From the IMG/VR virus record IMGVR_UViG_3300045988_094266: a DNA stretch of 23,961 nt; one strand, given 5' to 3'. The stretch is from a virus. The notes beneath the pieces were generated by a model. It was not told the DNA's origin and ran no database searches. It saw only the letters and a list, made by a program, of their open reading frames with translations. Numbering within the stretch: the stretch's first letter is position 1; every line of letters begins with the position of its first letter. This document shows positions 1 through 20,551 of the stretch, in pieces. The translations under genes were made by a program, and so were the position numbers.

Positions 1-52
1 TACATTCCATAGATATTTTCTCCTTTCATCTAAAACCTTTAAAAAAGTACAC

Positions 53-81
53 TTTACTGAACTTGGTCAACTATATATAAT
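53..81 (+). promoter_or_regulatory. sigma-70-like promoter (-35 TTTACT 53-58, 17-bp spacer, -10 TATAAT 76-81) inside the IR core, pointing at gene 248
   Basis: Consensus -10 hexamer with 17-bp spacing. The -35 straddles the IR arm boundary. No equivalent promoter was found on the opposite strand of the core. Confidence 0.4.
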
Positions 82-133
82 TTATCTACTCTTTCTTTCA
101 TATATATTTGAAAAGAGTAAGATACTCACTTTT

Positions 134-168
134 GGGAAAAGGGTTTCTTACCCTTTTCCCAATTTTTT
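134..168 (+). terminator. rho-independent terminator-like hairpin (GGGAAAAGGG-tttctta-CCCTTTTCCC) plus T-run, between promoter and gene 248
   Basis: Perfect 10-bp GC-rich stem with a 7-nt loop, followed by AATTTTTTGTT. It lies in the leader between the putative promoter and the first + gene. Confidence 0.6.
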
Positions 169-247
169 GTTATCTAGACAGAAGAAGTATTTTTCCTGTT
201 AAAAAGTGTACTTTTTTAAAGGTTTTAGATGAAAGGAGAAAATATCT

Positions 248-886
248 ATGGAATGTATTTTAACTGGATAGGTTAAAAACCAAAATGCTATTACCGTACC
301 AGGAGGCGGTAGCGCAGAAATGGGAGAAACATTAGGGTTAGGACCTTATACTATTGAATTTGATGAAGAAGATAATGAAAATCTTACTGCATCATCAATA
401 GAATATAATAATGAAACTTCAAGTATGAAAGCCACTAATGTTCAATCAGCTATTGATGAGCTTTTTACCGATGTCAGTGAGGGCAAAACCCTAATAGCGA
501 CCGCAGTCACTGACAAAGGAGTAGAAACTGCGGCGACCGATAGTTTTTCAACTATGGCAGATAAGATAGGATAGATTACAACAGAAACCCCTATAGAAAC
601 GGTGGATATTATATTTGAATCATTGAGTGGTATAAGTGGATGTACTGTAATAATAGAATATGAAAATGCGCCAATGTCAGTATGGGTAGTGTAGAAAAAT
701 AATTATAAAGTGATAAAAAATAGTATTATAACTATAAATGCCGGTTCTTCTTCAGGACTTAAAATTACTCCTCAGTCTGCATATGAAAGTTTGGGAGCTA
801 TATTAATAAATAATAATTATCAAGTTATAGCATATAAAATTATTGGTCCCGCTACAATTACTTCTACTGGAGGTAATATTAATTAA
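248..886 (+). CDS. tail-fibre / receptor-binding-like protein (about 212 aa; alternative start ATG 320); 3 in-frame TAG codons (269, 572, 692)
   Basis: The ORF is continuous to TAA 884-886 when TAG is read as a sense codon. It has a TNVQSAIDELF...GKTLIATAVTDKG motif reminiscent of Firmicutes phage fibre proteins. RBS GAAAGGAG precedes 248 and AGGAGG precedes 320. Confidence 0.55.
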
Positions 887-908
887 ATTTAGGAGGTAGT
901 ATTATACT

Positions 909-1307
909 ATGATAAAAGTAAATGGGAAAAAGGTTGCTGGAATAGGGTAGCCTGGATTAAACGGTAAATCTGCTTATGAAACAGCTAAAGAAGGAGGGTT
1001 TACTGGAACTGAAAAGGAGTTCAATACTATATTAGCAAATTCTGCACTTAAACCTATTATTAAATTGATAACTCTATATTCATCAGCTTGGTCTAATAAT
1101 ACTCAAACAGTAAATATAATTGGAGTATTGAGCGATGAGGGCAAATAGATAATTTGTCCAACTCCAACAATAAAAGATATAGATATATATAATAATTCAG
1201 GCATTTAGTGTATAAATCAACAAGAAAATAGTTTAACTTTTAAAGCCCAAAAAATTCCAGAAAATGATATATAGATATATATAATTTTGTAGGAGGTGCG
1301 AACATGA
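909..1307 (+). CDS. tail-fibre-like protein with collagen-like/fibre motif GQPGLNGKSAYETAKEGGFTGTEKEF (132 aa, 5 TAG codons)
   Basis: RBS AGGAGG lies 9 nt upstream of ATG 909. The G-x-x / KSAYE-A---GF-GTE-E motif is typical of phage fibre and host-specificity proteins. The gene ends at TGA 1305-1307, overlapping the next ATG (ATGA). Confidence 0.5.
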
Positions 1308-1552
1308 TTATTAACCAAACTTTTCAGACGGAAAAGTATTCAATAATAGATAAAACAAGCCTTCAATATGGCTATCCAGTAAGAGCAACCCCTGGAGAAA
1401 TTGTTTACAGCAGTCCTATGAGTGCAGGAATATCAGATAATGTATATTTAATAAAAGATGGAAGCTCTATTGATGATGTTTATTCAGATGGTAGATATAA
1501 ATTTATAATGCCAGAAGGCGATGTTTTGATTGCTAGAGATTATCCTTGGTAA
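1304..1552 (+). CDS. hypothetical small protein (82 aa), possible fibre C-terminal or assembly module
   Basis: Intact ORF with RBS AGGAGG. Its start is translationally coupled to the previous gene. It ends at TAA. Confidence 0.5.
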   Translation: MIINQTFQTEKYSIIDKTSLQYGYPVRATPGEIVYSSPMSAGISDNVYLIKDGSSIDDVYSDGRYKFIMPEGDVLIARDYPW

Positions 1553-1586
1553 TCTTATATATATTATATAATAAAATTTTATATAA

Positions 1587-2294
<708 letters not shown>

Positions 2295-2345
2295 AGTTAA
2301 ATTATCTTCCTATTGTTTTATATATAATATAAAGGAGGAATTAAT

Positions 2346-2735
2346 ATGCCTGAAATTGTTATTCAAATATTCTAGCTTTGTATTCTTCCTCTGCTTGGTA
2401 TTTTAACAAAATATCTCATAGATTTCCTCTCTGCTAAACGAGATGAGTTAAATTCTAAGACAGAGAATGAAACAGCTTAGAAATACACCACTATGATATT
2501 TGATACTATTACTAAATGTGTAATAGCTACAAATCAGACTTATGTTAATAGCTTAAAAGAACAAGGTGCTTTTGATGCTGAGGCTCAAAAAATTGCATTT
2601 GATAAGACTATGGAATCTGTATTAGAGATCTTATCATCTGATGCAAAACAATATATTATTGAGACAACTGGCGACTTAAATACTTACCTAACTAATCTCA
2701 TTGAAGCCGCGGTTAATGAAAATAGAGCATCATGA
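2346..2735 (+). CDS. small membrane protein, N-terminal TM helix then soluble domain (130 aa, 2 TAG); possible holin-like
   Basis: RBS AAAGGAGG precedes ATG 2346. There is a hydrophobic N-terminus (IVIQIFQLCILPLLGILTKYLIDFL). The gene ends at TGA 2733-2735. Confidence 0.45.
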
Positions 2736-2738
2736 TAT

Positions 2739-2770
2739 AATGGGGTTACTATGCCCCATTATATTTTTAT
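2739..2770 (+). terminator. rho-independent terminator (AATGGGG-loop-CCCCATT plus ATATTTTTAT)
   Basis: 7-bp GC stem immediately after the stop of gene 2346-2735, followed by a T-rich tract. Confidence 0.5.
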
Positions 2771-2777
2771 ACTAAAA

Positions 2778-2825
2778 TTGGCAAAAATTTTGGCAAAATA
2801 GTAAAATTATCTTTGCCAAAATTTT
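2778..2825. promoter_or_regulatory. site cluster B: 19-bp near-palindrome TTGGCAAAAATTTTGGCAA (2778-2796) plus TTGCCAAAATTTT (2813-2825)
   Basis: Same 9-bp half-site consensus, and the same full-site-plus-half-site layout in the same orientation as cluster A. It lies upstream of gene 2872. Confidence 0.5.
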
Positions 2826-2871
2826 ATATAATAATGAAAGGCCAAGGGAATATTTTAAAGGAGGTAAAACT

Positions 2872-3297
2872 ATGGCAGTTAATTATCCATACTATATACC
2901 ACAACAATAGCAACCTTAGTATGCGGCAATCCCTTATGCTCCGCAACAAAGAATGCCCTATGTGGAATAGCCCTAGATTGGAATTAAAGGTCGCCCAGTT
3001 TCTTCAATAGAAGAAGTAAAGGCAACTAGCATTGACTTTGATGGTTCTGTATTTTTCTTTCCTGATTTAGCTAATAAAAAAATATATACAAAATAGATAA
3101 ATTTAGATGGAACTTCAACACTTAATGTTTATGAATTAAAAAATATTCCGATTGAAACAGTTGTCAATCCTTCTTAGTTTGTTACTAGAGAAGAATTTGA
3201 AACCGTACTTGCTCAATTAAAAGAAAAAATTGCGCCATAGGCAAATAAATAGCCTACAGCGCAATAGCAGGAATCAAAGCCAAAATTAGATTTTTAA
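2872..3297 (+). CDS. Gln/Pro-rich hypothetical protein (141 aa) with 9 TAG codons, several inside poly-Q runs (CAA CAA TAG CAA)
   Basis: Strong RBS AAAGGAGG. The protein reads MAVNYPYYIPQQQQPQYAAIPYAPQQ...APQANKQPTAQQQESKPKLDF. TAG is embedded in CAA/CAG runs. The gene ends at TAA 3295-3297. Confidence 0.6.
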
Positions 3298-3309
3298 GGA
3301 GCCGATAAA

Positions 3310-3543
3310 ATGAATCCAATGTAGTTAATTCAAATGATTAGGAATGGATAGAATCCTCAATAGCTAACTCTAAATATATTAGAAAGTTAGATGGGGAATA
3401 ATCCGTTTGGAGCTAATTTGTTAGATCTTGCCAAATAGAATAAAACCGAAGAGATTGAACAAATAGCTAGAAATCTTTTATCCCAAAGAGGATTAAATTA
3501 TGACAAGGAGTTTGCTGACTTTAAGAAAATGCTCGGCCTTTAA
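3310..3543 (+). CDS. hypothetical small protein (77 aa, 5 TAG codons)
   Basis: RBS AAGGAG precedes ATG 3310. The reading frame is continuous to TAA 3541-3543 only under TAG = sense. Confidence 0.45.
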
Positions 3544-3568
3544 TAATTTTCTTAAAGGAGGAACTTAA

Positions 3569-4474
3569 ATGTTCAATTCTAACAATGGATACTCTTTAGC
3601 TGATATTGCTGCTGCTACAGGTGGCAATGATCGTAACAATGGCGGAATTTGGAACGACGGAGGAGCTTGGTGGATTATAATTCTATTCTTATTCTGCTTC
3701 TCTGGATGGGGAAATGGATTTGGCGGTTTTGGTGGATATGGAGCCAACAGTAATGGTCTGGGTTCTCCTTCTGGTCAAGGTTGGGCAACTCGCGCAGACA
3801 TTAATGAAGGTTTTGCTTTCCAAAATCTACAGTCTGGAATTAATTCTATCCAGTAGGGAATCTGTGATAGCACATATGCTTTAAATAATGCTTTAACAAA
3901 TGGTTTCCATGGAGTAGACAACGCAGTATGCAATCTTGGATATCAGACACAGCAAGGTTTCAATAGCACTAATGTAGCTTTAATGCAGGGTCAAAATGCT
4001 TTAGCTACACAGCTTTCTAACTGTTGTTGTGATACAAAATCTGCAATTCAGCAAGCAAGTTTTGATAATCTCACAAATCAAAATGCTATTTCTCGTCAAA
4101 TTGCAGATTGTTGCTGCGAGACTGGTCGTCAGATTGAGAGAGGTTTTGCCGACGTCAACTACAATCTAGCGACTAATACTAATGCACTACAGACTTCTAT
4201 GGCCAATAATACTCGTGATATTATTGACAGTCAAAATGCTGGAACTCGTGCAATTCTTGATTATCTCTGCCAGGAGAAAATCTCTGATTTGCAAAACGAG
4301 AATCAAGCTCTTCGTCTCGCTGCTTCTCAACAGGCTCAAAATAACTTTATTACAGCTAACCAAGAAGCTCAAACTGCGGAGCTTATCCGTAGATTAGGAC
4401 GTGATAATCCAATTCCCGCTTACGTAGTACCAAACCCCAACTGTTGCTATAGCATGAATAGTTGCGGATGCTGA
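3569..4474 (+). CDS. Cys-cluster, Asn/Gln-rich membrane-anchored protein (302 aa, 1 TAG at 3854); unknown family
   Basis: RBS AAAGGAGG. It has an N-terminal TM helix plus a Gly-rich tract (GGAWWIIILFLFCFSGWGNGFGGFGGYG). A roughly 33-aa periodic region carries CCC motifs (NCCCDTK..., DCCCETG...), a coiled-coil-like N/Q repeat and a C-terminal CCYSMNSCGC. It ends at TGA 4472-4474. Confidence 0.6.
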
Positions 4475-4502
4475 TTTAAATTAAAAGGAGAGATTTGGTT
4501 CA

Positions 4503-4925
4503 ATGGAAATTATTGCGAATGCCGTACAAACAGTACAAGCTAATCAAAATGTCCTTTTTACCGATGCGGTAGTAGGCTGTTCCAACAGCCTACTACATCG
4601 CGTTGGAAGTGGACTAGTAACACTAAAAGGTAATACATCTACTCAATGCAGAGCTAGATATAAAGCTCATTTTAGCGGTAATATTGCAATCGCCGCAGGT
4701 GGAACAGCAGGCCCAATTTCTTTAGCTATTGCTATCAATGGAGAAGGTGTAGCTTCTACTACTATGATTTCTACTCCAGCGGCGGTAGGAGATTATAATA
4801 ATGTAGCAAGTTCTATATTTATTGATGTGCCAAGAGGATGTTGCTTTGAAATTGCAGTAAAAAATGTTTCTACTCAGACTATTGACGTCCAAAATGCAAA
4901 TTTAATTATTGAAAGGGTGGCTTAA
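4503..4925 (+). CDS. BclA C-terminal-like (C1q/TNF-type jelly-roll) domain protein, 140 aa
   Basis: RBS AAAAGGAG. The pattern VLFTDAVVG...IAIAAGGTAGPISLAIAINGEGVASTTM...IFIDVPRGCCFEIAV...ANLIIERV resembles BclA-C/exosporium or phage fibre tip domains. There are no TAG codons. Confidence 0.5.
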   Translation: MEIIANAVQTVQANQNVLFTDAVVGCSNSLLHRVGSGLVTLKGNTSTQCRARYKAHFSGNIAIAAGGTAGPISLAIAINGEGVASTTMISTPAAVGDYNNVASSIFIDVPRGCCFEIAVKNVSTQTIDVQNANLIIERVA

Positions 4926-4927
4926 TT

Positions 4928-5542
4928 ATGGAAAGACTTAAACATATGAAAGAAACTCTTATTGGGTGTGTTCAATCATAGCTAAGTGATATTCATAATG
5001 TAGACACTCATGAATTAGGCGAGGCTATTGATATGATAAAAGATTTAGAGCAGGCAATGTACTACTGTTCTATTGTAAAAGCAATGGAAGAGAAAGATGA
5101 AGAACATAGAAAGTATTACATTCCAATCACTCCTCCATATTATTTACCCGATAGAGATATGGACAGAAATGAATGGGGTAGAATGTACTATCCTCGTTCA
5201 AGAGATTCTCAAGGGAGATATACTGAATCAGATAGAGGAGATATGCAGGATAGCCGCAGAAACTATGGAGATAGACCAATATATTATAACGAGAAAGAAT
5301 TTCCAATGGATTTAAGAGATTCTCGCGAAGGTCGTAGTCCTATGATGCGTCGGATGTATATGGAATCAAAAGAGCTTCATAAAGATAAAGAAATAAAGAT
5401 GAAAGAATTAGATAAATACATGAAAGAATTAAGCGAAGATTTAGTTGAAATGATTGATGACGCAAGCCCAGAAGAAAGACAGTTATTAGAAAAGAAAATT
5501 TCTGCTCTTGCTACAAAAATATCTTCTTTAAACCATGTTTAA
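4928..5542 (+). CDS. hypothetical protein with disordered Arg/Asp/Tyr-rich centre (204 aa, 1 TAG at 4979)
   Basis: ATG 4928 is in frame with ORF 5033-5542 through TAG. The protein is low-complexity (YYPRSRDSQGRYTESDRGD...) with a C-terminal coiled coil. Confidence 0.45.
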
Positions 5543-5861
5543 TATTAATGGAGAAGGATGGAAATTATTTTTAACTTCTCCAATTCATCCTATGTTAATT
5601 AGAAGCGATGGACAGTTAACGATAGGAGCTTGTGATAATGAAACTAAAGGTATTTATATTAATGGAGAATTATCTCCATTAATGATGAAAAAAGTTTTAT
5701 GTCATGAGTTAACGCACGCTGCAATGTTTAGTTATGGAATAGAATTGTCTATCGAACAAGAAGAATTACTAGCTGATTTAATTGCTACATATGGCTAGGA
5801 AATAATAAATATGACTAATTCTATTTTTAATCGCTTAAAGAAGGATGGGGAACTCAAGTGA
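5535..5861 (+). CDS. HExxH zinc-metallopeptidase-like small protein (ImmA/IrrE- or SprT-like), 108 aa if TAG 5796 is read through
   Basis: The motif is VLCHELTHAAM. ATG 5535 overlaps the stop of the previous gene. The ORF runs through TAG 5796-5798 to TGA 5859-5861, which lies inside the terminator stem. The C-terminal extension is uncertain. Confidence 0.45.
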
Positions 5862-5877
5862 GTTCCCCATTTTTTTA
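5845..5877. terminator. bidirectional rho-independent terminator between the convergent + and - blocks
   Basis: Perfect 12-bp inverted repeat ATGGGGAACTCA / TGAGTTCCCCAT, flanked by an A-run upstream and a T-run downstream. It sits between the convergent gene ends at 5861 and 5875. Confidence 0.7.
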
Positions 5878-6306
5878 TTCTGATCTAATTTCTAACTCCA
5901 TGGTTTTCTCATAATATTCTTTAGCTTGTCCATTACCACCTAAAGAATGATATAGTTTGTAAAATTCTGTTAGTTGATCATACTAATCTTGAGTCATATA
6001 TCCTTGCTTTATATATATTTTACATAGCTAAACAAGTCTGAATCTATATGAAGCTATAATTAATGTTAAATCTTGTCTTTCTTTATCTTCTATTTTCCGT
6101 ATATATGTTCTTAATTCTTCAATATCTTCTACTATTGGTTTTAATTTTTCGTCAATAAGTTCTACTATATCATTATTTTCTTTTTCCTATAACATTTTTT
6201 TATATGCCATTAACTATTTATATAAGTATCTACAAAAAGCCAACGCTCCGGCGGAAATTAGACCAAAAAGAATTTCTACTATATGTTCTGTAATAAAAGC
6301 AAACAT
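5875..6306 (-). CDS. membrane protein with N-terminal TM and coiled-coil cytoplasmic domain (143 aa, 4 TAG); holin-like?
   Basis: RBS AAGGAGG sits 5 nt before ATG 6306. The N-terminus is MFAFITEHIVEILFGLISAGALAFC. It ends at TAA 5875-5877. It is absent from the ORF track because it is fragmented by TAG. Confidence 0.55.
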
Positions 6307-6369
6307 AAAATCCTCCTTTCTTAACTTCTCAAATTATTTTAAAGTTAAGAAAGGAGGATTTTTTTATTT
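6307..6369. promoter_or_regulatory. 20-bp perfect hairpin (6307-6326 / 6343-6362) whose 3' arm contains the SD of gene 5875-6306; terminator/attenuator-like
   Basis: AAAATCCTCCTTTCTTAACT and its exact reverse complement are separated by a 16-nt loop, with T-rich tracts on both strands. The - strand AAGGAGG RBS lies inside the stem. Confidence 0.6.
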
Positions 6370-6378
6370 AGACCAATA

Positions 6379-6858
6379 TTACCAAGCACATTGATGCTAT
6401 TTAATATGCGCAAGGCCGATACAAACAGCGTCACTTTCATCCTGTGTGGGTTTTTTCCCATAATTATAAAAAACATAATTCTGAGCATTTTTTTTCTACT
6501 CTGGTCGAGTTTTTCCTTTTATACCCAATAAAGATTTCCATGTTACTGCTAAAATAGAAGAATGGGGAATTTTTTCTTGTTCTAGTAATTCAGAAACTAC
6601 CCCATATACTTCTGCTAAAATCTTAAAAGTCTAAACATTATTAGAAATATTATTCTACTACTATATATCTTCAAAAACTACTTCATCTATATGATACTAT
6701 TCAATAAGATCTTTAATCTTCTATCTTATTTTTACTAATCTAGTATCTATATTATTATCTTCAACAGCAAATTTACCAAAAGTTTTTAACTTATTATCTT
6801 CAAAGACCGCATACCCGGTAATCTTCGAACTCTAATCGAGTGATAATAGATTACTCAT
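6379..6858 (-). CDS. ruvC: RuvC-like Holliday-junction resolvase (159 aa) with 9 TAG codons incl. TAG-TAG-TAG
   Basis: ATG 6858 overlaps the dUTPase TGA (ATGA). Read with TAG = Q, the frame gives MSNLLSLDQSSKITGYAVFEDNKLKTFGKFAV...IDEVVFEDIQQQNN...TWKSLLGIKGKTRPEQKK...QDESDAVCIGLAHIKQHQCAW. This matches the RuvC pattern (G-D-G, ITG-AV, E, K-K-K, DESDAxxIAL-H). It ends at TAA 6379-6381. Confidence 0.75.
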
Positions 6859-7421
6859 TTAGATGTGCTTCCGAATCCACCAAGTCTTTCTCCAGTTGCA
6901 TTATCGTCATCAGTAATTTGATAACTCTTAATAATTCCTTGTCCAATTTTATCTCCACGCTTTAACTGAATAGCAAAAGGAGATAAATTAACAAGCTGGA
7001 AAAAGATCTCTCCTTCATTATCTGGATTATCACAATAATCGGCATCAATAATACCAACGCTATTTCCGCAAATAATCCAATGTTTAAGAGGAGTGGAACT
7101 ACGAACACTTAATTCAAGATATTGACCAGGATTTAAATGACATTTCATTCCTGTTGATACAAGAGTAATCTTAGACTTTAATTCTTTAGTAAGATTAGCC
7201 ATATCATCAAGAGTAAAAGGGCTCACAAATCCATAAAAATCCTTGTCACTATCTTTTTCAAAAATATGGTCTTGAATTTTAGAAGTTAAAAAATTCATTG
7301 GAGGTAGAACTGTATCCTCTGCGACTACGAAATCATAACCTGCGGAATTGGCGGTCGCGCGGGTTGGAATAGGTAGATCAATGTCACTAAAGCGACTTAC
7401 TTTCTCAAAATATACACTCAT
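6855..7421 (-). CDS. dut: dUTPase (188 aa), no TAG codons
   Basis: The motifs are ATANSAGYDF, GIIDADY and RLGGFGSTSK. RBS GGAGG precedes ATG 7421. It ends at TGA 6855-6857. Confidence 0.85.
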   Translation of the reverse strand: MSVYFEKVSRFSDIDLPIPTRATANSAGYDFVVAEDTVLPPMNFLTSKIQDHIFEKDSDKDFYGFVSPFTLDDMANLTKELKSKITLVSTGMKCHLNPGQYLELSVRSSTPLKHWIICGNSVGIIDADYCDNPDNEGEIFFQLVNLSPFAIQLKRGDKIGQGIIKSYQITDDDNATGERLGGFGSTSK

Positions 7422-8310: not shown

Positions 8311-8853
8311 TTATTTTATTCTGTCAACAATAATTGCACCAATAGCATTGCCTATTGTAACTACTATTAAAAATAATATTACATCAATAGAAAGCACACC
8401 TGCGGCCAAAGTGTAACAAAGATCTGCAATACAGTGTTCTCCGCCGAATAATATAAAACCTGTTACGCAGACTGGCACCATATAATCTTTATTTCTTTTA
8501 AACGAGGATACTGCCGAATATATAAATATACCACAAACCATCCCCTTTAAGAAAACTAAATATAGTGGGATTGCGATCTTAGCAGAGACTAGAGATAGAG
8601 CGGCTGCGTGCGGAAAGGCTAAGATCCCGCACGCTCCAATAATATTTCCTATTAAAATAATAAGATTATCTTTTATATCATTTTTGCTCTTGATATAACC
8701 AACTGAACCTGTAAATAATTTAAACTACATATTTAATATAGTCAGTAGGCCAATGGAAAACATAATAGCTCCAACTATACCTCCAACAGATAAGTAGATA
8801 TAGCTAGCTATTGCTATCATTAATCCTCCTAAAATACTCTTTACAAAGTTCAT
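8311..8853 (-). CDS. FNT-family (formate/nitrite transporter-like) polytopic membrane protein, short form (180 aa, 1 TAG), translationally coupled to nrdG
   Basis: ATG 8853 overlaps the NrdG TGA (ATGA). There are multiple TM segments. The motifs LNMQFKLFTGSVGY (like GAELFTGN), FGGEHCIADLCY (like SGFEHSIANMF) and VVTIGNAIGAIIV (like VTIGNIIGG) recall the signature regions of FocA-type channels. It ends at TAA 8311. Confidence 0.5.
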
Positions 8854-9323
8854 TTTAGATAAATTATTTTTTGATTGCGGCTTCCTCTAAGAGGTTCCGT
8901 AATATCTCTTTCATGTTCAATATATGGCCCATCAATTAGCACATCAACTAATTGGAATATATTCTAAATAACTGTATCTGTTGAATTTTTTAAATCTTCA
9001 TACAAGTATCCAGTCCATAAATAAACCTTTAAATCAGGAATTGTTTCTTTTGCGGTTTGTATTACCAAATGAGTTAGAAATGTATTTTCTGGACATAGTG
9101 GCTCGCCGCCCATAATACATAGAGTTCTTTTAACTCCATTTGCAGTAAGCCCTTCTAAGATTGAATTAAGGGTTTCATGGGTAAATTCTTTTCCTCCATT
9201 AAAATCCCAAGTCTCTTGATTGTGGCAACCTTGACATCTATGAGGACATCCCTATGTAAAAAAACTCAAAGACACTCCAGGTGCGGCAGAAAAGTCATTT
9301 TTTATAATACCTGCATACTTCAT
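8850..9323 (-). CDS. nrdG: anaerobic ribonucleotide reductase activating protein NrdG (radical SAM, 157 aa, 2 TAG)
   Basis: ATG 9323 overlaps the NrdD TGA. The motif is GCPHRCQGCHNQETWDF, with a CxxxCxxC 4Fe-4S cluster. It ends at TGA 8850-8852. It is missed by the ORF track because of TAG. Confidence 0.8.
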
Positions 9324-11533
9324 TCCATATACCCCACGTGTTTAATTCTCGCTTGTGTTTCGGCCACTTTTCCTTTATTAAAGGCTGTTTTATAATTTCC
9401 AGTAAGATATCCTGTTACGCGTCTTAACTGTTGAATATCTTCACTACCACACATTGGACACTTATCATTAAATTCACCAGTATAACCACATTTTAAGCAA
9501 GTATCATTAGGGACATTAATTGCAAAATATGGAATATCATGATTCATAGCATAATTAACTAAAGTCTCTAATGCATCAATATTATTCTCCATACCACTAT
9601 CAAGTTCAACATAAGTGATACAACCGGCAGAAGAGTAGCCAGTTAATTGGGATTCAATATCAATCTTATCAAAAGGGGACATTTGTTTCCATACAGGAAC
9701 ATGAATAGAGTTAGTAAAGTATTCTTTATCACTTACATTTGGAATAATTCCGTATTTATTTTTAAATTTAGTCATAGCTGTATAACATAAATTCTCGGCT
9801 GGAGTAAAATATACTCCGAAATTTAGTTGATATTTTTCTTTATACTCAGCACATCTATCTTTGAATAATTGCTCAATACGCTTAGCTAACTTCATTCCCT
9901 CTTCTGTGGTATGGTCTTTACCAATAAGAATTTGTAGAGTTTCAGCTAATCCAAGTTGCCCCATAGCTAAAGTTCCATGTTTTAAAGCGCTTCGAGTAGA
10001 AATTCCATCATATCCAGCCATTAAGCCGTTTTCATACATGAATTTCGCGGATTCCGCGGGTTGAGAACAAATATACTCAAATCTCTCAAGAAGCATATCT
10101 TTAGCATCATTTATAGCTTGATCTAAGAAATCAATAAAAGTTTCAACACAAGAGTCGTCTCCGCTTGGCATGGTTTCCCAATACTTTTTAGCCTCCATAG
10201 CCAATGTTGGCATAATAATTGTTACTGGACAAATATTTCCACGACCATCTTTTTGTTGGCCTAATCCATTAATGTCGAACCCATTCGCAGTTCTACAACC
10301 CATAGTAGAGAAGTATGTCTTAGGATCATTTTTATCATATCCTGCATTTCCGCTCCAATCAACATTGGCATAATTGGGATATAATCTTAAAGCAGTAGAT
10401 TTTAAAGCGATTCTGAATAAATCATAATTGGGATCACCAGGAGCTCGATTAATTCCTTTTGCACATTGAAAGATGCCACAAGGGAAAATAGAAGTTTTGT
10501 GAAGTCTACCAAGTCCCTCAATAGAAACTTCAAGTAAAGCCTTAATTACCATTCTCCCTTCTGGAAGAGTACAAGTACCATAGTTAATAGAAGTAAAAGG
10601 TAATTGATTTCCAGATCGAGACTACAAAGTATTTAAATTATGATACATACCTTCAACTGCTTGATGAGTCTCTCTTTCTGTCATATCTATAGCATATTGA
10701 TACGCATTTGGGTATTCTTTATATATTTCACTATCAATAGGAAGAGTAGAATTTAATCTATCATCCATAGATAAAGTATGTTCAACATAAACAAGTCCAT
10801 CATTAAAATGTTTATAAAAACTCTTTCGTACATATGGAACCATAGTCCAATCCAAGTGAGTAGCAGATACTCCACCAAATTGTTGTAAACTCTGTAGTTG
10901 GAAAATAACTGCAACAAGCTGGAAAGCGGTATTTACAGAACCCGCGGGGCGCACATCAGTTTGTCTAGTATTAAATCCCTTTTCAAGTAAATCATCGAAA
11001 GGAATAGAAAGACAGTTGTGCATACCTACAGCATAAGCATTTAAATCATGAATATAAATTCTATTATTTTCATGATTTACTCGTGATTTATTAGAAACTA
11101 AATAATCAAGAGCATACCTTTTCATTTGTAAATCTGACGCTGCTCCAACTCGTCCGCCAAATGACATTTCATCTACATTGGCATTTTGGTTTTCAATATC
11201 AGAACCTTGAATCTTTGCAGAAAAGGCTTTAATAAAATCATCTTGGCCTTTTCTTGCAATCTCTCTTTTATATCTATATCTAATATATTCTTTGGCTACG
11301 TCTCTACGTTCAGATTTCATAAGATAATCTTCAACCATATCTTGAATTTTTTCAACGGAAACTACATCATCAGATGTTTTTACAGCATACTTAATTTCAT
11401 CTGCAATATCATTTGCTGTATCATCTTCATATAATGCCCCATCAACTTCGATGAAAGCTTTATTTATAGCGTTAATAATACGCTCTTTATCAAATGGTAC
11501 TAGGATACCATTTCTCTTTCTTACTTGAAGCAT
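9320..11533 (-). CDS. nrdD: anaerobic ribonucleoside-triphosphate reductase NrdD (class III, 737 aa; ORFs 10622-11533 and 9320-10552 joined through TAG 10622-10624)
   Basis: N-terminal ATP cone (MLQVRKRNGILVPFDKERIINAINKA). The join reads ...HNLNTL-Q-SRSGNQLPFTSINYGTCTLPEGR. The C-terminus has a Zn ribbon CLKCGY...CPMCG and a glycine-radical RVTGYL motif. It ends at TGA. Confidence 0.9.
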
Positions 11534-11548
11534 ATATAAAACAACTCC

Positions 11549-11980
11549 TTATCTCGTTTTTTGTATATATCTCTACTTTTCCCTTTGTAAAGATTCTAAA
11601 GTCTTTTTGCTTTTTAATATTCCATTACTATCATTATAGTATAAAGAAATGAATGAGTTCAATGCATCACTTGGACCTTGAATCTTTTCGCTTTTTCCTC
11701 CACCAGGCATTGTATTATATCCAACAGAGGGATTGGTAGAATTATAATATGATATATATTGCTTTTCTAACTTATTACTTTCATCTAGCGTAAGATTATT
11801 TTCTAAAATTATATGTTCAAAATTATTCCATCCATATTTCTATATATCATAATAAAAAGATATATTTTCCTTGTATCCATTACCATTTTGCCATCTCTTA
11901 TTTGGATTATCTCCAAATTTGGTTTGTCCAATATATACTTTATTATTTATTTTATTTCTATGCAAATATATACAATACAT
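11549..11980 (-). CDS. free-standing GIY-YIG endonuclease (homing-endonuclease-like, 143 aa, 2 TAG) between gmk and nrdD
   Basis: RBS GAGGTGG precedes ATG 11980. The protein reads MYCIYLHRNKINNKVYIGQTKFGDNPNKRWQNGNGY...ISFYYDIQKYGWNNFEHIILENNLT...YNSTNPSVGYN, matching the GIY-(10)-YIG, R, KYGW.NF and N signature. It ends at TAA 11549-11551, directly upstream of the nrdD RBS. Confidence 0.75.
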
Positions 11981-12035
11981 ATAAATCCACCTCTTTATGC
12001 GAGTATATTATATATAAGAGATAGGGATTATTAAT

Positions 12036-18796: not shown

Positions 18797-20548
18797 TTAA
18801 AAGTAATACTTCTATCTACTTATAATTTCATAATCTGTAATAATAATTTGTGGTGTCACACTACCGAAGTATCTATTTACTTCTGGTTTACCAATCAAAT
18901 TTATACTCACGCAACCTAATTCACTAGATAAATCTTCTAGCTCCTCTTCGCTTGATTTAAACTTGATGCAAGTAACTCCATTTGGTAATTGAATCTTCAA
19001 AGTAGGATTCTTGTCTCGTGACATAAGACTAATCATGTCATTTGTTACTGCAACATTTTCTACCGCAATTAGCGGTTCGTCGATATTCTATCCCCAAAGA
19101 TACTTAGAATTGCCTAGTTCTAATATATCTTTAGAATTAATATCTGACATAGAGTAAATAAAATCTACCTTATAGCTTGGCGAAAATTCTATATCTTTTA
19201 ATTGATTGTCTGACCATGTAATAAAATCTTCAAAATCTTTTTCATAAATGCCAAAGCCAAAAGCATTTGCGTGCCCCTCAGCTAAAAAGACTAAATTTGA
19301 ATCTCTTACAAATTGTCTAAAATCATTTAATTTAGACTTTTCGTATCCTCTAGCTGATCCTTCCCAAGCATCTTGTCCATTGTTTACAGTCTTTGATAGG
19401 AGAATAACGGGGCGCTTATACTTACTCATTAATTCATTAGCAATTAAACCAGTAATACCTCTATCAACCTACATATCTTCTAGTTTAATTACTAAAAGTT
19501 TATGCTATAATAGATTTTTTTCTTGAATAATATTCTCTATTTGTTCAACTTCGGCATCTCTAGTTCTAGTCTAACGATTCTTAACATTAGTGCAAACTCT
19601 TAATGCTTGCTCTAATCTAGTTTCCTCTTGCCCTTTACATCCTCGTTTAGTAGAAGGAATAAGATCATATGCTTTCCATTCAAGCATACTTTCAAATAAA
19701 ATCTACTTTTCATCTTGAGTACCCATACGAGTAATGGCATTAACAAGAGGAACAATATAAAACGCTACTCCAATAGGAGATAAATCTCCTCTGCCTAACT
19801 AATAAGCATTTTTATCAGCCATACCTTTAATAAAAGGATTGCGGAGACTTGACCTCTGTAGCCCCTATTGAATAAGATAATGAGTTTCAAAATCTCTAAT
19901 ATCCATCATATCTCCTATAAGACCGGTGGCTACAATATCAAGGTAATTGTCCGCATAGGCAGTTCCGCAAATACTATCCATATACTAACACAATTTATAA
20001 ACTACTCCTACACCAGATAACGATTTTGTTGGATAATCGCATAACTGATTATTAACAACACAGGCGTATTCAGATATTTTATCAGCTAAGTGATGGTCTA
20101 TAACTAATACATCAATTCCGCGATTAGCCAATTCTTCATGCTCTTGATAGTCGTTAGAGCTTGAATCCGGTGCAATAACAAGAGAAATATTATCGGGGAT
20201 TAATTCTGGTTTTATTCCATGAATTTTACCAGAATGGAAGTTATAAACAAACTTGTTAATTGCAGAGGGAAACTGCGCATGAAGATAATTTAGCAATAAT
20301 GCAGAAGAGGTGTAACCATCGCAGTCGCTATCTACCTAGACATAAATATAAGAGTCGTCTTTTAAAATGTGCTTAATAATTAGCTTAGCAGCGCTTTCAA
20401 TATTATTAAGAAGTAAGGGAGATAAATTATCTTTTTCTGATACTGTTAAATAATGCTATATATCACCATATTTAATACCTCTGTTAACTAATACCTACTT
20501 TAAAGCACTATAATCCTAATTTCTTGGGTTAATTAATGAATATTCCAA
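18797..20548 (-). CDS. RecJ-like DHH-family single-strand DNA exonuclease (583 aa) with 13 in-frame TAG codons; start codon uncertain (TTG 20548?)
   Basis: Four ORF-track fragments (20296, 19429, 19036 and the unlisted 20548-20297 stretch) share one frame when TAG is read as sense. The motifs are QVDSDCDGYTSSALLLNYL (DHH motif I), VLVIDHH, and a C-terminal OB-like domain. There is no in-frame ATG upstream of motif I. TTG follows AAGGAG and sits directly after the TAA of the upstream gene. It ends at TAA 18797-18799. Confidence 0.7.
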
Positions 20549-20551
20549 TCT

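Follow-up and report, generated by a model that had tools for sequence, protein, structure and literature searches.

A candidate invertible promoter between two receptor-binding operons of a human-gut phage, read from a contig that ends in an assembly overlap

The window studied here, by which we mean the whole 23,961-nt stretch of viral DNA that was analysed (IMG/VR record IMGVR_UViG_3300045988_094266), opens with a short non-coding region holding a promoter-like and a terminator-like element, followed by fibre gene A with the rest of its cassette and by a gene for a small serine recombinase (Table 1). When TAG is read as sense, coverage by open reading frames of at least 100 aa rises from 16.0 to 25.8 kb, and the recombinase gene has six TAG codons, five of which fall opposite CAA or CAG in a diverged relative (L036). 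Taken together, the in-frame TAGs, the gain in coverage, and this alignment indicate that the phage reads TAG as glutamine, and gene coordinates are given on that basis; no suppressor tRNA was found in the window. Complete contigs of the phage measure about 98–148 kb, and the two proteins used for look-ups occur in 1314 and 1972 indexed blocks of a public collection, which marks the phage as very common among human-gut data. A Firmicute is the probable host: two contigs were binned into Clostridia MAGs, a weak hint that agrees with the strong Shine-Dalgarno sequences of the phage. A megablast search of window positions 1–6000 against annotated phage genomes returned no match.

Table 1. Features at the left end of the window, with genes translated reading TAG as Gln
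Feature	Position	Strand	Details
Left "arm"	1–55	.	gene-A leader with RBS and the opening 10 coding bases, in reverse complement; same as the contig's terminal overlap at k=55
Predicted crossover site 1 (26 bp)	37–62	.	half-site CTTTAAAAAAGT, centre AC (49–50), half-site ACTTTACTGAAC
Putative invertible segment	51–207	.	between central dinucleotides; centre-to-centre 159 bp; 147-nt core = 56–202
Sigma-70-like promoter (consensus match)	53–81	+	TTTACT-17-TATAAT; 10/12 consensus match; hexamers invariant in 9 haplotypes
First hairpin of short leader RNA (predicted)	87–119	+	from the fold of 86–175
Intrinsic-terminator-like hairpin and T run	132–170	+	13 pairs, 6 G-C; same direction as promoter
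Predicted crossover site 2	196–221	.	CTGTTAAAAAGT, centre GT (208–209), ACTTTTTTAAAG
RBS and fibre gene A	RBS 231–238; gene 248–886	+	RBS GAAAGGAG; 212 aa; 3 in-frame TAG read as Gln
Rest of strain-variable A cassette	909–1552	+	ORF2 909–1307, collagen-like N-terminus; ORF3 1304–1552
Terminator-like hairpin closing A cassette	1615–1650	+	just upstream of invertase gene
Small serine recombinase (DNA invertase) gene	1671–2294	+	GTG start, 207 aa, GRPRK arm, 6 in-frame TAG

Gene A matches a PHROG tail fiber family (9.4e-11). Its N-terminal ~110 aa are conserved and its C-terminus is allelic—window positions 203–584 are 95% identical to the relative L001, with divergence after that point—and the C-terminal part of the gene is replaced wholesale from strain to strain together with ORF2 and ORF3, giving cassettes of 212+132+82 aa, 329+225 aa, or 198+60+134 aa. 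A coding inversion of the Mu type within 584–1556 was ruled out by the comparison with L001, in which the replacement is allelic and in the same orientation. The hairpin that closes the cassette is kept in a relative (L034) despite deletion of the cassette itself. A 13-nt repeat (390–402 and 1466–1478) reflects either a shared protein motif or chance.

The recombinase gene lies within the fibre cluster, ~1.3 kb from the non-coding region. Its product matches PF00239 (1.3e-30; 106.8 bits against a cutoff of 23.3) and the PHROG 125 family "DNA invertase" (6.4e-53), and the closest solved structures are Sin/Bin3 (2r0q, 1.6e-35), gamma-delta resolvase (1.9e-23), and Gin (1.9e-15). Alignment to full-length Sin spans residues 5–194, the Y-x-R-V-S-x-x-x-Q nucleophile motif is present from position 1677 onward, and the protein combines an N-terminal catalytic domain with the length (~180–210 aa) and the GRPR-type arm before the C-terminal domain that define small serine recombinases. 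Judged by its sequence, the protein is a bona fide member of that group. The C-terminus searched alone matched no Pfam HTH model, and annotated phage genomes contained no invertase more than 57% identical. Sin, the nearest solved homologue, belongs with the resolvases and not the invertases, and it employs HU-type accessory proteins.

The first-pass annotation of this DNA had placed a promoter and a terminator in the core of the non-coding region, and both are found there: a TTTACT-17-TATAAT element at 53–81 and, at 132–162, a 13-pair hairpin with a T run. The promoter is a consensus match only, and such matches are no commoner in the locus than in shuffled sequence; it is also the only promoter of its kind in the window and in 20 kb of the relative L021. 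Across nine haplotypes the spacer and the bases downstream of the promoter vary while both hexamers stay fixed, and the same holds for the terminator and for the predicted crossover sites, which are unvarying amid variable neighbouring bases. The stem of the terminator covaries in L034 and L036. RNA from positions 86–175 is predicted to fold as two hairpins (-32.1 kcal/mol, z = -7.2); an Rfam search with the core and with the whole intergenic region gave nothing near any gathering score, and no other copy of the core or the promoter was found elsewhere in the phage.

We gathered relatives from viral contigs, using a repeat-pair pattern and a hairpin pattern, and from one metagenome scan, one genome scan, and two exact-protein look-ups. 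A probe made from the core found the IMG/VR contigs L001 (29 kb) and L002 (98 kb), and window positions 1556–7274 are 99.3% identical to L002, so that the window and L002 represent the same phage. In both contigs, a gene on the minus strand follows the left arm, and over its first ~380 nt it shares 95% identity with gene A of the window. Gene A is nonetheless attached to opposite ends of the core: the core joins it by the terminator end in the window and by the promoter end in L001, L002, and L003. In total, we recovered 35 distinct contigs that span the locus, plus partial ones, and all have the same order—A on the minus strand, a 14-nt repeat, the 147-nt core with its promoter directed away from A, a second 14-nt repeat, and a different gene, B. 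The promoter is directed toward B in 35 of 35 distinct spanning contigs as well as in three diverged ones, and the flipped junction, with the promoter toward A, was seen only in this one contig end; no fully flipped contig was found in the viral, metagenome, and genome collections or by the two exact-protein look-ups. The hairpin search is unbiased as to contig size, and 13 of its 14 contigs run straight through the locus, showing that breaks there are uncommon.

Beyond the core in L001 and L002, only 14 nt of the right arm are present (AAAGTGTACTTTTT); the sequence runs on as CTCGGAAATTG..., across a conserved 115-nt leader and into gene B, which starts TTG CCT AAA TGT and encodes Big_3 and DUF6273 domains. 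Downstream of gene B, and outside the window, lie an Avd-like gene, then a template repeat and a gene for a reverse transcriptase (RVT_1, 1.3e-16); the template and variable repeats are identical at 87 of 103 positions and differ at template adenines. These are the components by which a diversity-generating retroelement (DGR) is recognized—a reverse transcriptase, an Avd-like gene, and a template/variable repeat pair with mismatches at template A—and gene B is its target. The candidate promoter segment has RBS-led genes on both sides. An N-terminal motif, C-I-L-x-x-Q, is common to the A alleles and gene B, which is consistent with alternative proteins that may dock at one site on the virion.

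The two copies of the natural 14-nt repeat lie at 42–55 and 203–216 of the window, each within one of the predicted crossover sites. An inverted repeat of at least 14 nt appeared in none of 300 dinucleotide shuffles of the 455-nt intergenic region; the repeat is non-random. The sites take the forms AAAGT-AC-ACTTT and AAAGT-GT-ACTTT, dyad symmetric with an asymmetric 2-bp centre and in inverted order in all lineages, and AAAGT-AC-ACTTT is invariant among intact relatives of the main lineage. From position 217 on, the window carries the outer half belonging to gene A where the relatives carry that of gene B, and inversion in silico at the central dinucleotides reproduces the junction seen in the window. 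The core is 147 nt in every relative, and only two copies of the site, both flanking the core, occur in the window and in each 10–20 kb relative checked. We thus find the arrangement that characterizes an inversion system, namely two inverted, dyad-symmetric sites with an asymmetric 2-bp centre, 159 bp apart. The segment between them is non-coding, and A and B are complete genes whose RBS and start lie outside it. Because the -35 hexamer overlaps the inner half-site, the promoter would travel intact with the segment. The half-sites contain A tracts, as expected for serine-recombinase crossover sites.

The promoter with its short terminated leader, placed ahead of late structural genes, also recalls lambda PR'-tR', where Q acts; here, by contrast, no Q-like gene or qut site was identified and the module is flanked by recombination sites. 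The reading of a promoter and terminator that need antitermination is compatible with the anatomy and could be combined with inversion; no antiterminator family appeared among Pfam hits of the neighbouring genes, which are part of a ~148-kb genome. In its strict form—a static late promoter and terminator, or a small-RNA gene, that is never inverted, with the invertase in some other role such as multimer resolution or regulation—we regard this explanation as improbable. It would account for the constant orientation in public assemblies, for a strong terminator placed about 80 nt past the promoter, for a highly structured short RNA, and for a nearest solved homologue that is a resolvase. It leaves the flipped junction of the window unexplained, and it sits poorly with the inverted order of the sites, which would give inversion and not resolution, with the lack of any further site copy within up to 24 kb around the invertase gene, and with the failure of any Rfam family to match the RNA. 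The two ideas are not exclusive, and the antitermination part may hold alongside inversion.

The left end of the window requires separate treatment. Positions 1–55 and 203–257 form an exact inverted repeat, 100% complementary, that encloses 147 nt; the right arm contains GAAAGGAG at 231–238 and ATG GAA TGT at 248, and the left arm contains their reverse complements. The first-pass annotation had taken this as a 55-bp perfect inverted repeat that could act as a recombination substrate, supplying an identical RBS and ATG to a second, divergent gene. The arms are exact as described, but the natural inverted repeat is only 14 nt long (AAAAAGTACACTTT) in 35 of 35 related contigs that run through the locus, among them same-allele relatives with an exact match to window 203–700. 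In these 35 distinct contigs, the right-hand repeat ends after 14 nt and is followed by CTCGG..., the leader of another gene.

As an assembly test, we took L017, a contig that runs through the locus, inverted it in silico between the central dinucleotides, and compared the 56-mers of window positions 1–400 with both versions. Forty-one window 56-mers (starts 162–202) were absent from the natural, promoter-toward-B orientation and found only in the inverted one, another 41 (starts 1–41) were absent from the inverted orientation and found only in the promoter-toward-B one, and none was missing from the union of the two. Window 1–55 is, moreover, the last 55-mer common to both core orientations on the gene-A side. 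Since the arm coincides with this last shared 55-mer and the contig end can be built only from both orientations, the 55-nt arm is an assembly overlap of k-mer origin and no copy of a natural repeat. SPAdes uses k=55 as its default largest k. An exact 55-nt arm follows from a de Bruijn assembler run at k = 55 with both A-side junctions among the reads: the source sample of the window would have held both junctions, and the assembly path would exit gene A, traverse the core, meet the reverse complement of its own vertex, and halt, so that the contig ended in a 55-nt overlap that reads as a perfect inverted repeat. The left arm is thus the beginning of gene A itself, viewed across the other junction, with no second gene involved. 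The earlier suspicion that the contig breaks at a repeat was therefore correct, with window 1–55 being the k=55 overlap, whereas recombination between 55-bp arms falls away with the arms themselves.

The same comparison bears on a literal two-paralogue model, in which a true inverted repeat of at least 55 bp is followed, left of the window, by another fibre paralogue whose RBS and start are identical. The window by itself allows such a model, because nothing is visible left of base 1, yet it can hardly be right. The relatives supply the left flank, and no paralogue of A lies beyond the core there: the partner is the different fibre gene B, with its TTG CCT AAA TGT start and its own 115-nt leader. 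Five contigs that match window 203–700 exactly (L017, L021, L025, L042, and L045) all have gene B beyond the core, as do all other relatives, with a leader and start different from those of gene A, and the exact 55-nt arm at the contig end equals both the default largest k of SPAdes and the last shared k-mer. A second fibre paralogue to the left is all but ruled out on this evidence, as every same-strain contig has gene B in that place. A hairpin telomere or genome terminus was likewise rejected, the locus being internal in contigs of 98–148 kb.

We favour the view that the locus is a phage-encoded DNA-inversion switch and put the probability of programmed inversion at roughly 60%. The proposal of a phase-variable fibre switch thus survives in its central part, the core being a candidate invertible promoter cassette between two fibre or receptor-binding genes, but loses its 55-bp arms and its identical-start partner. 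Under the switch model, a 159-bp non-coding segment would carry an outward-reading promoter and, past a short and structured leader, an intrinsic terminator. Near-palindromic crossover sites (AAAGT-AC-ACTTT), inverted relative to each other, would mark the two ends of the segment, and a divergently transcribed receptor-binding operon would lie on either side. One operon would comprise gene B and its DGR (Avd, template repeat, reverse transcriptase), and the other the strain-variable cassette of A, ORF2, and ORF3. The invertase (1671–2294), acting on these sites, would cleave each at its central dinucleotide and invert the segment, and the single promoter, presumably active, would feed B in the default state seen in every complete assembly or, when flipped, the A cassette, with transcription of the latter ending at the hairpin from 1615. 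Gene A would then be silent while the promoter faces B. The position of the terminator inside the segment, downstream of the promoter, implies that either operon presumably needs read-through by a late antitermination function.

Inversion is the likely source of the junction in the window, one that a fold-back chimera would reproduce identically. Under a fold-back explanation there is no programmed inversion: all genomes in the sample have the usual orientation, and a template switch or snap-back at the 14-nt repeat, arising during multiple-displacement amplification, end repair, or replication in vivo, yielded an A-core-rcA molecule whose edge the assembler retained, while the two sites might be, for example, operators flanking the promoter. 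Multiple-displacement amplification typically yields inverted chimeras joined at short complementary stretches, the contig end does read as a fold-back of A arm, core, and rcA, and no flipped B-side junction was seen. The single orientation of the other 35 assemblies and the passage of 13 of 14 hairpin-search contigs straight through the locus point the same way. We nevertheless judge this explanation unlikely. It leaves unexplained the adjoining invertase gene and the asymmetric central dinucleotide maintained in inverted order in all lineages; and a rare chimeric edge would normally be pruned by coverage filters, which suggests that the alternative junction had substantial coverage.

The fold-back explanation also fails to account for what happens to the locus in diverged lineages. 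In L036, whose invertase is 75% identical, the layout is B', site, core with hairpin, site, A' (582 aa), a small ORF, and the invertase gene, and both inner half-sites have changed jointly (ACCTT / AAGGT) while the outer halves are still AAAGT; the repeat is thus preserved by compensatory changes. L034 and L035 have lost the A cassette, and with it one repeat has acquired a mismatch (AATGT), the promoter hexamers are degraded, and the catalytic motif of the invertase carries an Arg-to-Cys change; repeat, promoter, and invertase have thus decayed jointly upon loss of gene A. L049 has lost both the A cassette and the invertase, with breakpoints that fall 1–3 nt from the predicted crossover dinucleotide on the left and a few codons before the end of the invertase gene on the right. 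This paired change and these joint losses indicate that the repeats, the invertase, and gene A are functionally tied. Together with the in-silico test, the invertase, the inverted sites, and the alternative fibres, they favour the inversion switch.

Several observations stand against the switch. The contig continues into the gene-A arm and not into gene B, as a clean flipped genome would not; the promoter is a consensus match of a kind no commoner here than in shuffles; the terminator right behind it is hard to accommodate, no antiterminator having been identified; Sin, the nearest solved homologue, acts as a resolvase; and a single orientation occurs in 35 of 35 spanning contigs and three diverged ones. 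The dominance of one orientation is compatible with a slow or host-selected switch and equally with no switching. In Mu G(+) lysates, too, one orientation is dominant.

Comparison with known systems suggests that the switch would act like Hin, by flipping a promoter, and serve a purpose like that of Mu Gin or P1 Cin, the alternation of fibres. It would share with Salmonella Hin and its H segment a small serine invertase, two short sites of dyad symmetry whose half-sites carry A tracts and whose crossover centre spans 2 bp, and a promoter within the invertible segment whose flipping alters which gene is transcribed and not its coding sequence. The H segment, however, is about 1 kb, includes hin, and turns one operon on or off, whereas here a non-coding segment of 159 bp leaves the invertase gene outside and its promoter would toggle between two divergent operons; in a phage with a probable Firmicute host, Fis and its enhancer are not expected, and Sin/Bin3 match the recombinase more closely than Hin or Gin do. 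With Mu Gin/G, P1 Cin/C, e14 Pin, and p15B Min, the locus has in common a phage small serine invertase beside tail-fibre genes, a presumed switching of receptor-binding specificities, and one orientation that dominates per host background. Those systems invert coding segments of 2–4 kb and exchange alternative fibre C-termini, together with chaperones, while promoter and N-terminus stay constant. Here no coding sequence would be inverted, and A and B are each complete and have an RBS of their own, so the locus is not of the Mu G-segment kind.

The Mpi-controlled capsular polysaccharide promoters of Bacteroides fragilis and other gut invertons have segments of ~150–230 bp inverted by a serine recombinase. 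The likeness to these invertons lies in a short promoter segment, short inverted repeats, and a human-gut organism (see also PMC10403206). Mpi invertons are bacterial chromosomal ON/OFF switches of one downstream operon served by a distant master recombinase, whereas the segment here is in a phage genome, would work two ways, has a dedicated neighbouring invertase, and contains a terminator. In Clostridioides difficile, the cwpV and flagellar switches offer a Firmicute setting in which an invertible leader decides whether a terminator acts on the transcript. They differ in their tyrosine recombinase (RecV) and in a promoter outside the segment, where here promoter and terminator are both inside and point in the same direction.

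The textbook phage host-range inversions known to us (Mu, P1) all swap coding segments, and we know invertible promoters from bacteria and not as a phage's choice between complete receptor-binding operons. In the literature that we searched, we found no account of a promoter that inverts between the fibre genes of a phage. The phage fibre inversions listed in a systematic survey are of the gene-altering kind only (PMC9881135), and a method paper from 2026 gives a count of 16 putative viral invertons, which it leaves unspecified (PMC13501310). If confirmed, the switch would add to allelic cassettes and DGR hypermutation a third layer of receptor-binding variation within a single genome, and it would be a compact 159-bp serine-invertase switch from a Firmicute-type system. 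The candidate switch, which would combine fibre alternation with an invertible promoter, adjoins a DGR, and the phage is indexed in well over a thousand public assemblies.

We advance a fuller picture tentatively, as possible rather than probable: a prevalent, TAG-recoded human-gut phage of ~148 kb in which a two-way 159-bp promoter inverton would choose between a DGR-hypermutated receptor-binding protein and a strain-specific cassette fibre, with the TAG codons of the invertase timing the flip late in infection. The six TAG codons imply that the invertase would be made only once TAG is read as glutamine, and late timing, if true, would mean that the progeny and not the current cycle express the other fibre. 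The contig end that led to this locus carries a practical lesson as well—where a contig ends in a perfect inverted repeat exactly k bases long, the repeat should be read as a mark that structural heterogeneity or chimeric reads have left in the assembly graph, and such exact-k terminal repeats should not be taken for natural ones.

A complete diversity-generating retroelement was found beyond the switch—the 159-bp putative invertible segment carrying the promoter—in the related phage contigs L001 and L020-L029. Its parts are gene B (the divergent fibre gene, here the target), an Avd-like gene (164 aa), a template repeat, and a reverse transcriptase; its template repeat agrees with the variable repeat at 87 of 103 positions, mismatches fall at template adenines, and gene B itself combines Big_3 and DUF6273 with a C-terminus rich in N, Y, and S. 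The leader of gene B, 115 nt long, is nearly unchanged across lineages and contains a hairpin, GGAGCGAAGATCGCTTCC, and a long-range pairing (TCTATCTAG with CTAGATAGA) that ends directly at the RBS. Because of this near-invariance, the hairpin, and the reach of the pairing to the RBS, we suggest that the leader forms a regulatory RNA structure; it had no match in Rfam.

On the side of the fibre gene A, variability takes the form of wholesale replacement: among genomes elsewhere 99% identical, unrelated sequence substitutes for the hypervariable cassette, and gene sets of 212+132+82, 329+225, 198+60+134, and 76+200+225 aa occur across strains. Downstream of it lies a terminator-like hairpin (GGCAATTTT...AAAATTGCC) followed by a T run, which would shield the invertase from A-cassette transcription and is kept in contig L034 despite deletion of the A cassette (gene A, ORF2, and ORF3).

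Two deletion lineages were seen at this locus. The first, the natural variant L049 (CALWOP010000177.1, 149 kb), is without both the A cassette and the invertase: the deletion starts on the left only 1-3 nt away from the predicted crossover dinucleotide, its right breakpoint lies a few codons ahead of the invertase stop, and the promoter stays fixed, facing gene B. The second, the lineage of L034 and L035, keeps the invertase and has lost the A cassette; one of its repeats carries a mutation (AATGT), its promoter hexamers have degraded, and in the catalytic motif of the invertase YGYACVSS stands in place of YGYARVSS. The locus looks like an unused switch in decay. Separately, the SPAdes contig L013 (NODE_62, 5337 nt) begins inside the core of the switch, 16 nt ahead of the terminator hairpin; this start, which corresponds to about window position 118, does not coincide with any vertex that inversion predicts.

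Many genes of the window carry in-frame TAG codons, and ORF coverage grows from 16.0 to 25.8 kb once TAG is counted as a sense codon. CAA or CAG stands opposite five of the six invertase TAG codons in L036, a diverged relative with a 75% identical invertase, and by this alignment TAG encodes glutamine in the phage. The recoding extends beyond structural genes, as in the DHH/RecJ-like ORF. No suppressor tRNA was found within the window.

Coordinates of features at and around the switch
Feature	Sequence	Position	Strand	Remark
Diversity-generating retroelement	L001	7465-11548	minus	
Same element	L020-L029	about 4600-8490		
Gene-B leader region	L021	8491-8738	minus	between switch and gene B
Deletion variant	L049	about 2850-3030		
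Apparently decaying switch	L034	1800-2160		
Apparently decaying switch	L035	5710-6070		
Hypervariable cassette	window	584-1556		C-terminal half of gene A, ORF2, ORF3
Terminator-like hairpin	window	1615-1650		directly upstream of invertase start
In-frame TAG, gene A	window	269-271, 572-574, 692-694		
In-frame TAG, invertase	window	1812, 2034, 2064, 2070, 2097, 2253		
DHH/RecJ-like ORF	window	18797-20551		13 in-frame TAG
Holin gene	window	2346-2735		PHROG, 1e-32; immediately 3' of invertase
NrdD, NrdG, and adjoining formate/nitrite-transporter-family membrane protein	window	8311-11548		anaerobic nucleotide reduction
GIY-YIG homing-endonuclease-like gene	window	11549-12007	minus	
GIY-YIG homing-endonuclease-like gene	L023	15555-16220		
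GIY-YIG homing-endonuclease-like gene	L046	12921-13688		inside nrdD

Among the other neighbouring genes, the NrdD/NrdG module beside a formate/nitrite-transporter-family protein is unusual phage cargo. GIY-YIG homing-endonuclease-like genes vary in presence and absence among strains, and in the related contig L046 one of them breaks the anaerobic ribonucleotide reductase gene nrdD into two calls, an arrangement that may represent an intron or mobile insertion.
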